The position numbers and the translations under genes are program-made. Positions 10,634 through 41,597 of a DNA stretch of 41,597 nt are shown here, in pieces. The notes beneath the pieces are model-generated. The model was not told the DNA's origin and did no database searches. It was given only the letters and a program-made list of their open reading frames with translations. Every line of letters begins with the position of its first letter. Position 1 is the first letter of the stretch. Source of the stretch: a virus (taxonomy: Duplodnaviria > Heunggongvirae > Uroviricota > Caudoviricetes); the IMG/VR virus record IMGVR_UViG_2703718828_000001, positions 1 to 41,597 of that record, one strand, 5' to 3'.

Positions 10634-10950
10634 ACCATTTAACGCCCCGTCAAAGTGAAGTTCTGGATGCAATAGTGCTCTACAAGGATAGAACCGGATT
10701 CCCGCCGACGATTCTGGAGCTTGCCGGTTTAATTGGCTGTGCATCACCTAATGCTGCTGCCGAGCATGTGAAGGCGCTTAAGAAAAAAGGTTACATCTCA
10801 ATTGCTCCTGGCGCTGCCAGGGGGATTACCGTAGTCAAAACGGAATGGGATGCAGAACCTGTAACGATCATTAAAGAGCTGCTATCCGGTGGAGAAAATG
10901 CCAGAGATAACGCTGTGGAATGGCTGAAAAAGCAGGGAGTGACGTTATGA
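10630..10950 (+). CDS. LexA N-terminal DNA-binding domain protein lacking the peptidase domain
   Basis: TPRQSEVLDAIVLYKDRTGFPPTILELAGLIGCASPNAAAEHVKALKKKGYI closely parallels the LexA winged-helix N-terminus; only 106 aa, no S24 domain. Confidence 0.65.
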   Translation: MNHLTPRQSEVLDAIVLYKDRTGFPPTILELAGLIGCASPNAAAEHVKALKKKGYISIAPGAARGITVVKTEWDAEPVTIIKELLSGGENARDNAVEWLKKQGVTL

Positions 10951-11333
10951 AACTTGTTCTCCCGTTTCCACCGAGCGTAAACACCTACTGGCGAGCCCCG
11001 AACAAGGGACCACTGAAAGGCCGTCACCTCATTAGCGAAAAGGGCAGGGCATACCAGAGTGCAGCTTGTTCGGCTATTGTCGATCAGCTGCGCCGCCTTC
11101 CAAAACCCTCCACCGCACCGGCGGCAGTGGAAATTCTTCTTTTCCCACCCGATGCGCGTCGCCGCGACATCGACAACTACAACAAAGCGCTGTTCGACGC
11201 GCTGAGCCACGCAGGGATCTGGGAGGATGACAGCCAGATTAAGCGAATGGTGGTGGAGTGGGGGCCAGTAACGCAGAAAGGAAAGGTTGAAATCACGATC
11301 AGTAAGTACGAACCGGCGGGTGCAGCCGCCTGA
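10947..11333 (+). CDS. rusA: RusA Holliday-junction resolvase
   Basis: MKLVLPFPPSVNTYW...RRDIDNYNKALFDAL matches the RusA family; about 128 aa. Confidence 0.85.
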   Translation: MKLVLPFPPSVNTYWRAPNKGPLKGRHLISEKGRAYQSAACSAIVDQLRRLPKPSTAPAAVEILLFPPDARRRDIDNYNKALFDALSHAGIWEDDSQIKRMVVEWGPVTQKGKVEITISKYEPAGAAA

Positions 11334-11348
11334 TAAGTGGAGAAGAGC

Positions 11349-12074
11349 ATGAACCAGATGAACGCAACCGTAATGTGTCAGACCCATCATGCAGCAGCTA
11401 TGGCGCAGCAAATAACGATGTCCAGTCGCGAAATTTCTCAGTTGGTGGATTCTCGTCACAGCAATGTATGCGTGACCATTGAGCGGCTCATGAACAGCGG
11501 TGTTATTGGGGGGTATGCTGCAATGCAGTACACCCATCCCCAGAACGGGCAGGTTTACCATTACTACGAAGTTAACAAGCGAGACAGTTATGTGATCGTT
11601 GCCCAGCTCTCGCCAGAGTTCACGGCTCGTCTTGTTGACCGCTGGCAGGAGCTGGAAAGCAGCGGGAGAATGGTGGTACCGCAATCATTGCCTGAAGCCC
11701 TCAGGTTAGCGGCTGACCTCGCTGAGCAAAAGCAGCGCTTGAGCGAAGAGCTGGCGATTGCCGCACCTAAAGCAGAGTTTGTTGATCGTTATGTCACGGC
11801 AACCGGCTCAATGACTTTTCGACAGGTTGCGAAGCTGCTCAATGCCAAAGAGCCTGAGTTTCGCCTGTTCCTGCTGGATCATCACATCATGTACCGCCTG
11901 AGCGGCGTTCTTACCCCATATCATCAGCATATTGAGTCTGGCCGCTTCGAAGTTAAGACCGGTACAACCAACGCTTCGAATTATGCGTTCAGCCAGGCCC
12001 GCTTCACGGCGAAAGGGGTCAAGTGGATTGGTGGTCTTTGGGCTGAGCACACCGCTAAGGGGCAAATGACGTGA
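11349..12074 (+). CDS. Phage antirepressor, Rha-type N-terminus with KilAC-like C-terminus
   Basis: ITMSSREISQLVDSRHSNVCVTIERL (Rha-like) and a C-terminal antirepressor-like segment. Confidence 0.65.
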   Translation: MNQMNATVMCQTHHAAAMAQQITMSSREISQLVDSRHSNVCVTIERLMNSGVIGGYAAMQYTHPQNGQVYHYYEVNKRDSYVIVAQLSPEFTARLVDRWQELESSGRMVVPQSLPEALRLAADLAEQKQRLSEELAIAAPKAEFVDRYVTATGSMTFRQVAKLLNAKEPEFRLFLLDHHIMYRLSGVLTPYHQHIESGRFEVKTGTTNASNYAFSQARFTAKGVKWIGGLWAEHTAKGQMT

Positions 12075-36326: not shown

Positions 36327-36964
36327 GCGGATTCGAATCTTATAACGATGCCGGAAAACTTCAGGTTGATTCGGAGAACAGGTCGACACTTTTTTATGAC
36401 CAGAGAACGCTGGGCGCTGTTACTGATAAAGGCTTTTACAGAGTAAACAGCCCGTTTGGTGATGGTTCGACGCTGGGGTATACCCCCACTCAGTTCTGGA
36501 ATGACGGAAGACTCAGATGGCTTCAACTGGGGACAAATAAATATGGGTTACCTGGCGCAAACCTTCTTGAGGATAACGCCGGGAGTATGATCCGCACTGC
36601 GCGAAATATTGGACTGGAGAGCGGGTACCTTGATGTTCTGGACAGCTCAGGGAACCTTATCTGGAGTGCTGTGTCAGCTTCGAAAATGCCCCGGGTGGTT
36701 GGCTTCTTTGATGTGCCGGCTAACTATGACCTGCAGAACAACACGTTTAGCATCACGCCAGGGTTCAACCCATGGATTCTGGTAAACAATTGTCCCGGTA
36801 ATCTCAGTGATGATGGAACGGTTGTTGGATATTCAGGTATTGCTCTTAAATGGACTGGTTCGCAGTTACAGGGGAGGTACATCTCAAGTAATCAGCGAAC
36901 CTGGGCCCAGACCATGCAGGGGAGAGGATTAAGAATTCCGATCGCCCGGTTTGTTGGGATTTGA
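36323..36964 (+). CDS. Hypothetical protein downstream of J
   Basis: 213-aa ORF, ATGA-coupled to the previous gene. Confidence 0.45.
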   Translation: MSGFESYNDAGKLQVDSENRSTLFYDQRTLGAVTDKGFYRVNSPFGDGSTLGYTPTQFWNDGRLRWLQLGTNKYGLPGANLLEDNAGSMIRTARNIGLESGYLDVLDSSGNLIWSAVSASKMPRVVGFFDVPANYDLQNNTFSITPGFNPWILVNNCPGNLSDDGTVVGYSGIALKWTGSQLQGRYISSNQRTWAQTMQGRGLRIPIARFVGI

Positions 36965-37291
36965 TGCCGGAGGAACACGCGGGTAGTGAGTGGCGATCAT
37001 ATCTTGCTTCACGCCCTTTGCTAACTCAAAACGATAAACAACATCAAACTTATTCGTTTTTTTATAGCAAATATTGCTCAAGCGCTTATTGATATGGCGG
37101 CTGAATATTCCGTTGCTACTGTCGGAAATAACTTCGACATCCCTGGTGGCACAGTCAATATTTACGTGAATATCCCCAGCCAAAGATAAGCGAGCGGCAT
37201 CAACCGGGTAATCCATCTGGAATGCGTTTTCTGTGTGCTTATTCGTACATCCAGTCACGAGCAAAATCGCTGCAACAAATAAAAGTTTCAT
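36929..37291 (-). CDS. Lipoprotein, possible Cor-like superinfection exclusion factor (by position only)
   Basis: MKLLFVAAILLVTGCT lipobox signal; minus strand between J-region genes and the side tail fibre. Confidence 0.5.
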   Translation of the reverse strand: MKLLFVAAILLVTGCTNKHTENAFQMDYPVDAARLSLAGDIHVNIDCATRDVEVISDSSNGIFSRHINKRLSNICYKKTNKFDVVYRFELAKGVKQDMIATHYPRVPPASNPNKPGDRNS

Positions 37292-38597: not shown

Positions 38598-38641
38598 TGA
38601 TTAATAGGCGGTCCAGCATTGATCTGCCCTCACTTTAAAAC

Positions 38642-38661
38642 TACTGTATATAAAAACAGTA
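38642..38661. promoter_or_regulatory. Near-consensus LexA (SOS) box
   Basis: TACTGTATATAAAAACAGTA matches TACTGTATATATATACAGTA at 18 of 20 positions; ~18 bp upstream of the ATG at 38679. Confidence 0.7.
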
Positions 38662-38678
38662 TAAATGGAGTGTGGATC

Positions 38679-38918
38679 ATGCCCCGCAAATCAGACCTTC
38701 GCGCCGCTTTCGTTGCCGCCGTGCACAAAAACCCGAAAGGGTATCAGTGCCTGCGCACCGCTGACTTTATCAGGGAGCTACGCGCCAGAAACTGGCATTT
38801 CACAGAAACTGACGCCAATGAATGGATAGAACGATACCAGGCTGGCTTTGTAGATAAAACACCCGACGACAGCCAGAACCGGCTCTGGATAATGCGCAAT
38901 ATGGGGTACATACGATAG
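38679..38918 (+). CDS. Hypothetical small protein, first gene of the putative SOS-regulated pair
   Basis: 80 aa from ATG at 38679 with GGAGTG RBS. Confidence 0.5.
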   Translation: MPRKSDLRAAFVAAVHKNPKGYQCLRTADFIRELRARNWHFTETDANEWIERYQAGFVDKTPDDSQNRLWIMRNMGYIR

Positions 38919-39235
38919 TGGGCTTCGTCTCGCCGGCGGGCGACTATATCGAGCGCAGGTTAAATCCCGAGGATATGCTCACGACAGATCAGAGCCGTAT
39001 CGTCGAAACGGCTACCGGCTATGCCGTGATTGAGCCGGTGACAAAACTTTCGCAGGGGCAGGTGCTGCTAATTCTGTGTGGTGGGTATACCCAGTTTGCG
39101 AAACTACAGGGCCGATCGTTAATCACTGATGATGGCGAAGCGTTAGAAGGTGAGGCCATGGAAGAGGCAGAAGTAATGGGCAGGGTGACGTATTTCATCA
39201 ATCGCACTATACGGGGTGATGACTGTCCGGTTTAA
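38918..39235 (+). CDS. UmuD'-like protein, apparently pre-cleaved and lacking the catalytic Ser
   Basis: Starts at GTG with GFVSPAGDYIERRL, matching the UmuD segment just after its Cys24-Gly25 cleavage site (GFPSPAADYVEQRI); SGDSM position replaced. Confidence 0.5.
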   Translation: MGFVSPAGDYIERRLNPEDMLTTDQSRIVETATGYAVIEPVTKLSQGQVLLILCGGYTQFAKLQGRSLITDDGEALEGEAMEEAEVMGRVTYFINRTIRGDDCPV

Positions 39236-39370
39236 CTGTAAGTTCGCCCAGAATTCTTTCGCCATTGAGATTTTTAACCAACAGTAACTTACTGATCTTG
39301 CATTAGTTCAATACGCAAAACAATGGCGAAAAAATCATGTAAGTTTATGATTAATCTGAATAACACGCAT

Positions 39371-39427
39371 GATTTAAAATCCCTCGGCGTTCGCGCTGTG
39401 CGGGTTCAAGTCCCGCTCCGGGTACCA
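39371..39427 (+). other. 3' fragment of tRNA-Leu(UAA): prophage attR core
   Basis: GATTTAAAATCCCTCGGCGTTCGCGCTGTGCGGGTTCAAGTCCCGCTCCGGGTACCA equals the leuZ-type tRNA from anticodon loop to CCA; upstream sequence is not tRNA. Confidence 0.75.
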
Positions 39428-39469
39428 TGGGAAACATCAGAATAATCAAAGCAATAAGCAGTGTCGTGA

Positions 39470-39492
39470 AACCACCTTCGGGTGGTTTTTTT
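39470..39492 (+). terminator. Rho-independent terminator (likely the original tRNA terminator)
   Basis: aaccacc-ttcg-ggtggtt followed by T-tract. Confidence 0.6.
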
Positions 39493-39667
39493 GTGCATGC
39501 AATTCACGCCCTGTGCATATCCTGTGCTCACGGGGTGCAATGAGCTGCAATCTACAGCCTGGCAATGCCGAATTGAACGTGTCGCCTCCAGCATAGAGAA
39601 CCAGGTTGCTTTGCCTGTTTTCCGGTACTCTTCCGGGAAGGGGCCCTGCTGAGCAAGCTGTAATGCT

Positions 39668-40408
39668 CTAGCCACCCTGAGTACAAAGTTGCTTAATTCG
39701 TGCAATCACCTCATCTCTGTACTTCTGGTGTCCGCGCATAGCCCTTGGATGGGCAATTCTGAAACAGATTGCATTACCTGTTTTGAACTCCCACAGCTTC
39801 TCCGGAATGACTGAAGAAGTCTCATAGCCGCCCAGCTCAGTAAGCACCTGTTTTATGATGTAGTCTGTTCTCCGGGCTCCGGATGCAAAGATGATGAAAT
39901 CAGGCTCAAGGTGTTTAATTTGTACCGCCAGCAGCTTCAGCGAGGCTAATATGACTTCCTGCACTTCATTTTGAGGGCGATTGAGAGGGGTCAGTCCGTC
40001 GTAATCCCACGCCAGTAGATTGGCATACACGATTGCCTGGGGAAGAATATTAAGCTCCCGGGCCAGCCTGAAATGATATTGCGTGAAGCGGCTACGTGAT
40101 TTGAGGTTGGTGGTGCCATAATTTTGTACCGGAAGATGTTTCCTGTAACGATCTACAGCTTCTTCAACCACCTGCCCGATGGTGACGTCAGGTATAAGTC
40201 CCAACACCCGTGATATCGTATTCTTACCATTCAGCGTATTCCAGCCAGCGGTTTCACGTCCAACCAGCATGATTTTTACCGGTGAGTGCCAGTATTCTTC
40301 AAAGGGTACGGGTAAAAATACGCCTGAGTATTTATCCTCATTCAGGTTAAATGACTGGGCGTTAACTTCCTGCAATATCCGTTTGTACGCGTCTAATAGC
40401 TTTTCCAT
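39668..40408 (-). CDS. Hypothetical protein at the island junction; uracil-DNA-glycosylase-like motifs (tentative)
   Basis: 246 aa; KIMLVGRETAGW resembles UDG motif A and a C-terminal HPRA resembles motif B. Confidence 0.4.
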   Translation of the reverse strand: MEKLLDAYKRILQEVNAQSFNLNEDKYSGVFLPVPFEEYWHSPVKIMLVGRETAGWNTLNGKNTISRVLGLIPDVTIGQVVEEAVDRYRKHLPVQNYGTTNLKSRSRFTQYHFRLARELNILPQAIVYANLLAWDYDGLTPLNRPQNEVQEVILASLKLLAVQIKHLEPDFIIFASGARRTDYIIKQVLTELGGYETSSVIPEKLWEFKTGNAICFRIAHPRAMRGHQKYRDEVIARIKQLCTQGG

Positions 40409-40489
40409 TCTTCAATCCTGCCCCGTAATAAAAACACCTTCAGATATATATTATTTTCATGATATCAATCAGATACATGAGGATAAATA

Positions 40490-41597
40490 TGCAAAAATCC
40501 TTCCGATTCACCAATTCATCCATCAAAGCCCTTCCGGCAAACACAGATACCAGATCTACAGAGCTAGAGGTATCTGATACCGAAGTTATTGGCCTCAAAT
40601 GTCTCTCAGGTCGAACGGGTAACAAACGTTTCCTCCTGCGCTACACATTCCACGGTACCAAAAAAAGTATCAGTATTGGCAGATTCCCTGAAATTGATGT
40701 GGGGACAGCTCGCCAGATAGCTCGCCGTCATAAGGAGGCGATTGCACTTGGAAATGACCCCAAGGCAGAGCGCGATAATTATCGTGCGATGCCAACGCTT
40801 AGTGAGTTTTTTCACCAGACCTATGTTCCGTTCATCAAGCGCCATAAAAAGTCCTGGGATAAGGATGTTCAGCGTTTCACGCAATACATTGAACCTCGTC
40901 TGGGAAAGATACGTTACTGCGATCTCAGGGCCAGAGAGATACAACAGGTGCTGTTTGACATGCTGGAGGGGCGTATTCACGGGCAGCAATATGCGCCGTC
41001 TACCTGTAACAGAGCCCTTGCTATTCTGAAAACGATGGGGCGTTATGCGTTGCGACAGGATGTGCTGGAAAAGAATGAAGCCGATAAGATCCCTTTACTG
41101 AAAGAGAATAATCAGCGGACGCGCTTTTTTGATGCTGATGAGATCAGGCGCATTCTTGACGCTGCTACCCAATATCCCAACAAAGCTGCCGGGGGATTGA
41201 TAGCCATGTTGTTGTTAACCGGTACACGCAAATCAGAAATGCTTAATGTCAGGCATGAACATATCGACCGGGCCAATCGTACTCTGTTTATTCCTTATAC
41301 AAAAAATGGTCGCAGTCGGACGGTATATCTAAGCGATGCCGCATTATCGATTATTGATGCTATCCCACGAGTTGGCAGTAATCCGTATCTGTTCGCCATT
41401 AAGGATAATGGAAAACCGATATCGGAACCCCGATGGGCATATGAAAAAATACTGGCACAGTGCGGTATAGACAAGAATGAAGTCTGTTTTCACACCACAC
41501 GTCATTCTGTTGCCTCTTTACTGGTTTCGAGTGGTCAATTCAGCCTGTATGACGTTAAAGCCCAACTGGCGCATGCCAGGGAAGGTGCGAATAAGCA
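40490..41597 (+). CDS. P4-type tyrosine integrase, N-terminal ~369 codons (gene runs off the window)
   Basis: Manual translation from ATG at 40490 (GAGGA RBS): MQKSFRFTNSSIKALP...LLLTGTRKSEMLNVRHEHID...FHTTRHSVASLL with R/H-x-x-R catalytic signatures; not in the supplied ORF track because no stop lies within the window. Confidence 0.7.

Follow-up and report, generated by a model that had tools for sequence, protein, structure and literature searches.

Among the closest described counterparts of the gene considered here are three antiviral DNA glycosylases of the uracil-DNA glycosylase (UDG) type, namely Brig1, Brig2 and Brig3. Brig1, whose family was defined by its authors through PSI-BLAST, is a stand-alone protein of ~250 amino acids (aa) without an iron-sulfur (Fe-S) cluster, which finds its best structural match in 4ZBY and uses residues Y121 and E147; its homologues are mostly actinobacterial, and it occurs in defence islands where ADP-ribosylglycohydrolase genes adjoin it (Hossain et al., Nature 2024, PMC11078745). 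Brig2 is a UDG-like protein of integron cassettes that shares ≤20% identity with Brig1 and defends against phages with modified thymidines, with hundreds of homologues found mainly in Pseudomonadota and often near mobile elements (Getz et al., bioRxiv 2025, 10.1101/2025.10.29.685425). Brig3 is a 5-hydroxymethylcytosine (5hmC) glycosylase of the UDG superfamily that retains weak uracil excision, and it is encoded together with the overlapping accessory gene bapA, whose product is an ASCH beta-barrel and after which comes an ADP-ribosylglycohydrolase gene (Mejia-Pitta et al., bioRxiv 2026, 10.64898/2026.02.25.707755). Abasic sites were shown to block phage replication for Brig1 and Brig3, and this was proposed for Brig2. 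Here we describe a UDG-like gene on the minus strand at 39668–40408 of the virus record IMGVR_UViG_2703718828_000001 from IMG/VR, of which the whole stretch of 41,597 nucleotides (nt), referred to as the window, was analyzed.

The gene and the three segments that carry its candidate active site are located as follows, the positions of motifs A and B having been checked by reverse-complementing the window sequence.

39668 to 40408, minus strand: gene of the UDG-fold protein, an open reading frame (ORF) of 246 aa with a 100% DNA match in Escherichia coli 81EVA
40238 to 40276, minus strand: motif A region, KIMLVGRETAGWN, residues 45–57, with beta-1 followed by G50-R51-E52-T53
40001 to 40033, minus strand: end of beta-2, IVYANLLAWDY, residues 126–136, with Asn130 as the candidate base-recognition Asn
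39740 to 39766, minus strand: motif B, CFRIAHPRA, residues 215–223, with the last beta-strand followed by His220-Pro221

The ORF is identical over its full length to a hypothetical-protein gene of E. coli 81EVA (protein WP_001407312.1), and an AGGA Shine-Dalgarno sequence is found at 40416–40419 on the minus strand, 7 nt 5′ of the ATG. Comparison with ten enterobacterial orthologues (66–98% aa identity) gave ratios of nonsynonymous to synonymous substitution (dN/dS) of 0.12–0.26, indicating that this is a functional protein-coding gene. The preliminary description of the window had picked out by eye two segments resembling UDG motifs A and B in this ORF and had suggested a divergent UDG-fold protein; both segments were recovered at the positions listed above, and the structural evidence bears out the proposed fold.

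The AlphaFold2 model of the protein, obtained with 36 homologues, is confident (mean predicted local distance difference test 89.8, predicted template modelling score 0.89) and has an alpha/beta fold with a central parallel sheet, as in UDG families 1–6. Its elements run in the order beta1 (46–50), helices, beta2 (126–130), helix (146–167), beta3 (171–175), helix, hairpin, beta4 (213–218) and C-terminal helix, so that in the model motif A stands straight after beta-1 and motif B (H220-P221) after the last strand. A Foldseek search against the PDB returned only UDG-superfamily structures among the best 50 matches, including family 4 (4zby, E 7.6e-6), UdgX, SMUG1 and TDG; the predicted fold is thus that of a UDG rather than any other, and the UDG interpretation stands. 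A profile of 98 diverse family members matched the Sulfolobus tokodaii family-4 UDG 4zbx (E 1.7e-5), with 'viwaNLfcf' aligned on 'VFITNVVKC' and 'cyRiaHPra' on 'VFPTYHPAA', both within the significant domain. Individually, 49 of the 98 members matched Pfam PF03167 at E up to 1 (best 8.3e-7), the scores listed for single members, 14.1 and 12.7 bits, lying below the gathering threshold of 24.3 bits, and some UniRef entries of the family carry the automatic name 'Uracil-DNA glycosylase-like domain-containing protein'. A chance resemblance, in which coincidental motifs sit on a non-UDG fold, could draw on the Foldseek TM-scores of just 0.4–0.6 and on the single sequence, for which no Pfam match was obtained even at E 10 and no NCBIfam match or PDB match by sequence; the profile of the close family (A1) likewise gave one chance match only against the PDB. 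With the above evidence from profile and model, this explanation is essentially excluded, and the gene is taken to encode a divergent UDG-fold protein. In PHROGs, the protein has a full-length match to phrog_29550, of unknown function, and no other usable assignment; a weak QueC-like match (E 0.099) was discarded as noise.

Residue conservation was counted over 98 relatives that are 20–65% identical to the window protein, and both motifs, in the expected order, proved to be near-invariant. The most conserved residues are G50 (98), E52 (96), T53 (80) and W56 (96) in motif A, F108 (91), N130 (95), S156 (98), P169 (98) and F174 (97) in the middle of the protein, and R217, H220 and P221 (97 each) in motif B. 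Position 51 is R, K or Q, with Q in 17 of the 98, and distant members read GQET. The family can be described by three signatures, with G-[RKQ]-E-T-x-x-W following beta-1, [WY]-x-N-L-[FL] closing beta-2, and R-x-x-H-P following the last strand. Family-1 UNG enzymes have the motifs GQDPYH, with the catalytic Asp at the third position, and HPSPLS, while families 2 and 3 have GxNPG with Asn at the third position of motif A (MUG GINPG; SMUG GMNPG), and family 4 has GE(A/G)PG. By alignment and model, Glu52 would stand where the GQDPYH of family 1 has its catalytic Asp and the GxNPG of families 2 and 3 has Asn; a local alignment of motif A with the family-4 segment 'MFVGEAPGEN' (domain 2 of the profile match) is weak and not independently significant. 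From this pattern we infer roles for three residues: Glu52 would activate the water, Asn130 would recognise the base and His220 would be the His of motif B.

Family-4 UDGs (S. tokodaii 4ZBX/4ZBY, T. maritima 1L9G and T. thermophilus 1UI0) are the best structural match and the sole significant sequence match of the family. They have in common with it the alpha/beta core, the Asn at the end of beta-2, the His-Pro that follows the last strand, and Ser/Pro conservation in the helix/strand-3 region. However, identity is only 13–16%, motif A reads G-R-E-T-A-G-W rather than G-E-A/G-P-G, and the window protein has an extra N-terminal helix and a helical insertion of ~65 residues (58–125). Its only Cys are C215 and C242, a Cys content of ≥50% is reached in alignment columns 133 and 215 alone, and no four-Cys pattern is conserved, so the family-4 Fe-S cluster is absent. 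Membership of family 4 was rejected on the lack of the four conserved Cys and on the GRETAG motif in place of GE(A/G)PG. The G-Q-E-T of distant members echoes the G-Q-D-P of family-1 UNG, with an acidic third position, Asn after beta-2 and a His-Pro motif B; nevertheless, membership of family-1 UNG, family-2 MUG and family-3 SMUG was rejected, as there was no NCBIfam or Pfam match and the motif differs.

The window protein resembles Brig1 in being stand-alone, similar in size, without Fe-S cluster and matched to structures of the 4ZBY type, and Brig1 is the closest model for how it would work. The two differ in motif A, which is of GLNPG type as read from the Brig1 sequence, as against G-x-E-T-x-x-W with the conserved Asn130 in this family, and in that the relatives of the window protein are almost all from Gammaproteobacteria rather than mostly actinobacterial. 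Membership of the Brig1 family was rejected, the hhalign probability being 0.1% and the BLASTP E >2 against the Brig1 sequence from the supplement of that paper. Brig2 and Brig3 were compared by description only: Brig2 is alike in its UDG-like nature and its proximity to mobile elements, though no attC-type repeat arrays were seen around the Vibrio and Photobacterium copies of the present family, which gives no support for a link. Some members of the family outside Enterobacterales lie in cassettes of a small accessory gene, the UDG-like gene and an ADP-ribosylglycohydrolase gene, as in the Brig3-BapA operon, but here the accessory gene is upstream and its product is modelled as EsaG-like rather than as an ASCH beta-barrel, and such a gene is missing next to the E. 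coli copy. The PDB matches listed by the structure and profile searches included no chain described as Brig, although such entries may be unreleased. No mention of the family was found in published work on UDG-like defence genes, DefensePredictor or a domain-centric screen, or under accession WP_001407312.1. Judged from its sequences, the family is a distinct, uncharacterised one within the UDG superfamily, belonging to none of the UDG families tested.

An exhaustive profile search returned 491 clusters at 50% identity (E up to 0.001). The family was recovered almost entirely from Gammaproteobacteria and occurs in many Enterobacterales besides E. coli. Of 5426 complete E. coli genomes, 540 (~10%) have the gene, always on the chromosome. 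It is absent from real phage genomes, as judged by tblastn against INPHARED, and among 2.9 million IMG/VR contigs it is found on only 6, each with an enterobacterial copy that is 96–98% identical; the possibility of a phage gene was rejected on these two results. phrog_29550 probably stems from prophage calls that overran into the adjacent island, as in this window. In Proteus penneri (L053, 10001–10345 and 10385–10783), the UDG-like gene is split into two ORFs, and this copy is probably a frameshifted pseudogene.

Relatives other than the close enterobacterial ones lack the integrase and are placed among phage-defence genes, an association that is suggestive. In Proteus vulgaris, Mrr and a type I hsdMSR system come directly after the UDG-like gene; in Pectobacterium, it adjoins Mrr_cat and PDDEXK_4 genes; and in Marinobacter, it stands after a DUF6361-helicase cluster and before HIT and NOV_C genes. 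Directly upstream of the operon are a PLD/NgoFVII-like nuclease gene in Methylotuvimicrobium and an AAA_15 ATPase gene in Paraperlucidibaca. Among 128 ORFs located no more than three genes away from the UDG-like gene at 26 loci, the commonest Pfam families were ADP-ribosylglycohydrolase (4), WYL (4), WCX (3), GmrSD_N (2), PLDc_2 (2) and AAA_15/AAA_21 (2), with PADLOC matches to WYL and to AriA/GajA/PtuA/Old-type ATPases. PDB annotation of three neighbour ORFs identified serS only. Across all loci fetched, WYL-WCX regulators occur in eight, the regulator gene of Alteromonas overlapping the start of the glycosylase gene. ADP-ribosylglycohydrolase homologues flank the UDG-like gene in seven loci, directly downstream in three of Marinobacter type and upstream in four of Halopseudomonas/Pseudomonadaceae, and in these two gene orders they are often accompanied by a divergent WYL-WCX regulator. 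The genes flanking the pair formed by the glycosylase and its partner (see below) are:

10765 to 11889 in each of L037, L038 and L039: ADP-ribosylglycohydrolase gene
3126 to 4388 in L043: ADP-ribosylglycohydrolase gene
7682 to 8971 in L045: ADP-ribosylglycohydrolase gene
6464 to 7699 in L047: ADP-ribosylglycohydrolase gene
3222 to 4559 in L049: ADP-ribosylglycohydrolase gene

At more than 20 non-enterobacterial loci, the glycosylase gene is directly preceded by a partner ORF of 109 aa, which is on the same strand and overlaps or abuts it. A hidden Markov model (HMM) of the stand-alone partners matches the N-terminal 100–110 residues of longer family members (P0059, 2.7e-39; P0123, 8.9e-13; P0162, 1.8e-5; P0121, 1.5e-4), and such partner-glycosylase fusions argue for a physical or functional link between the two. 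The predicted structure of the partner resembles EsaG-type immunity proteins, and in two protein searches the partner was recovered only from marine Gammaproteobacteria where the source organism was named. It was found neither in the window nor in 26 kb of the 81EVA locus, nor at any of the enterobacterial loci examined.

In E. coli 81EVA, the annotated order is glyW-cysT-leuZ, hypothetical protein and site-specific integrase, at 100% identity to the window. This order of tRNA-Leu, UDG-like gene and integrase is fixed at ≥93% aa identity in E. coli, Enterobacter, Citrobacter, Franconibacter and Buttiauxella, and is also found in Shimwellia (79%), with the divergent genes 51–69 bp apart. The cargo past the integrase is partly conserved, but it is replaced in Buttiauxella massiliensis, where only the UDG-like gene and the integrase are shared. 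The cargo of the 81EVA island (L001, 14687–24026) includes a helix-turn-helix (HTH)-WYL regulator beside a DUF726 gene and a pair of hypothetical proteins of 866 aa and 212 aa with a mad1-like HTH, as well as a second tyrosine recombinase, and looks like uncharacterised defence-type cassettes. Both the enterobacterial glyW-cysT-leuZ locus and a UDG-like gene of 93% identity occur on a contig labelled Vagococcus sp. WN89Y (L017), which is probably a contamination or a mislabelled assembly.

The surroundings of the gene in the window, which had been described as lying between an attachment (att) fragment and an integrase gene, agree with that placement and contain the following features.

39371 to 39427, plus strand: 3′ 57 nt of the tRNA-Leu gene leuZ, att core (attR) and right end of the prophage, aligned to the intact leuZ of 81EVA
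39428 to 39667, no strand: spacer of 240 nt from the tRNA end to the stop codon of the UDG-like gene
40409 to 40489, no strand: AT-rich divergent intergenic region of 81 bp between the UDG-like gene and the integrase gene, GC content ~0.41
40490 to 41579, plus strand: leuZ-island integrase with an intact length of 399 aa, annotated as 'site-specific integrase' in 81EVA, truncated after ~codon 363
41580 to 41597, plus strand: terminal inverted repeat of the insertion sequence (IS) IS5, GGAAGGTGCGAATAAGCA, 17 of 18 bases identical to the IS5A end in MG1655, the window ending inside the IS

ARAGORN found no intact tRNA at 39371–39427. A lambdoid prophage that carries a tail-tip J homologue, a tail fibre gene and a tRNA-Arg fills positions 1–39370. 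Both this prophage and the island occupy leuZ, in tandem. The first 75 nt of the spacer (39428–39502) have a match in 5405 E. coli genomes, nearly all of them, at ~93.5% identity, whereas the whole 240 nt are matched in just 533 genomes, the remaining ~165 nt (39503–39667) being island-specific; this suggests that the leuZ 3′ flank or terminator seen here is a copy that arrived with the island. A hairpin followed by a T-run at ~39469–39492 was read by eye in the spacer and was not flagged by the promoter scan, which also found no consensus sigma-70 promoter in 40409–40489, and an Rfam scan of 39200–40600 returned nothing. All integrase matches in E. coli stop at 41579, where the IS5 end begins, showing that the gene is cut after ~codon 363 of 399 in the source genome, in which the leuZ island is probably immobilised.

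Elsewhere in the prophage, two small abutting ORFs (38619–38918 and 38918–39235) lie at its right end between the tail fibre gene and attR, a moron-type position, and match phrog_3893 (unknown function) and phrog_3469 (a 105-aa 'UmuD-like protein'). An ORF of 120 aa at 36929–37291 (minus strand), opposite to the flanking tail genes, has the lipoprotein-type signal MKLLFVAAILLVTGC and matches phrog_25729, of unknown function; this ORF is a possible moron or superinfection-exclusion lipoprotein gene.

Taken with the genomic associations, the product is most likely a Brig-like antiphage base-excising enzyme, and we lean towards a monofunctional DNA glycosylase that would excise a non-canonical base from invading DNA and leave replication-blocking abasic sites. 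In such a mechanism, the base would be flipped from the DNA into the enzyme pocket, where Asn130 would read it, with Glu52 holding the attacking water in place and His220 stabilising the base as it leaves; the resulting abasic site would block phage replication. The likely target would be a non-canonical or hypermodified base of invading phage DNA, since the family sits in defence islands and mobile islands, and the E. coli enzyme would be self-sufficient and act solo. Several observations weigh against this proposal. There is no detectable sequence similarity to Brig1, no defence model of PADLOC 2.0 matches the window protein at E 10, and the register of motif A relative to known families is placed only by the position of beta-1 and the non-significant local alignment. 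Neutral loci were also found, with the gene beside serS in Pseudoalteromonas and beside a NEL-type effector gene in Erwinia, and as the census of 26 loci had no matched control, the defence association is suggestive rather than quantified. Furthermore, the E. coli copy stands alone at the edge of the leuZ island, with neither partner nor ADP-ribosylglycohydrolase gene, so the context of distant relatives (~55% identity) may not transfer to it. A bolder extension, which we regard as tentative and rather doubtful, is that the family represents a fourth, mechanistically distinct antiviral lineage of the UDG fold (G-x-E-T-x-x-W, N, H-P), ancestrally a WYL-regulated three-part system of which the solo E. 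coli form would be a streamlined version directed at a modified base outside the range of Brig1–3. The EsaG-like partner, free or fused, would then gate or direct the enzyme, and the ADP-ribosylglycohydrolase would act with it, perhaps freeing the modified base of a bulky adduct so that it can be excised, in the way BapA acts for Brig3.

Gene order, fusions and a partner of EsaG type are also suggestive of a toxin-immunity or abortive-infection module, in which a glycosylase acting on ordinary or host DNA is held inactive by the 109-aa partner or the fused N-terminal domain and released on infection. The E. coli copy would then be an orphan, but solo copies keep every catalytic-type residue and remain under purifying selection, and we consider such a module unlikely. 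A back-up repair enzyme of mobile elements, excising uracil, hypoxanthine or another deamination or oxidation product so as to protect the DNA of island or host, and having no role in immunity, appears about as improbable. The characterised close structural neighbours are all repair UDGs, the Asn and His-Pro motifs match those of uracil-recognising family-4 enzymes, and even Brig3 has kept its weak activity on uracil; however, the distribution is patchy and accessory (about a tenth of E. coli and a few hundred clusters worldwide), and the recurrent linkage to restriction-enzyme, WYL and ADP-ribosylglycohydrolase genes is atypical of housekeeping repair genes; 3.1% of housekeeping glycosylases lie near defence or mobile markers as compared with 41–45% of defence glycosylases (Getz et al., 10.1101/2025.10.29.685425). 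The tRNA-Leu/UDG-like/integrase order, fixed in close enterobacterial relatives at the short divergent spacing given above, and the sharing of this two-gene module alone by B. massiliensis, with different cargo, could point to a non-catalytic UDG-fold accessory of the integration module, for instance one that binds DNA or sets directionality for the neighbouring integrase. This we hold to be very improbable, because the near-invariant Glu/Asn/His triad is hard to explain without catalysis; in the loci examined outside the enterobacterial clade, the gene is never beside this integrase, and in the window IS5 interrupts the integrase gene but leaves the UDG-like gene intact.

Antiphage glycosylases that remove modified bases have been recognised only since 2024, and few families of them have been tested. 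The gene described here defines a new, uncharacterised family within the UDG superfamily, which probably belongs to this recently recognised class of antiviral DNA glycosylases and does not represent a new principle. It lacks an Fe-S cluster and has an unusual catalytic-type motif, whose third position is Glu, and even if it were a repair enzyme instead, it would still define a new UDG family. The pairing of a UDG-like protein with an ADP-ribosylglycohydrolase also occurs at the Brig1 and Brig3 loci, and the present family makes the role of this pairing directly testable. As the family is carried by about one in ten sequenced E. coli, it can easily be tested in a standard host with standard phage collections.
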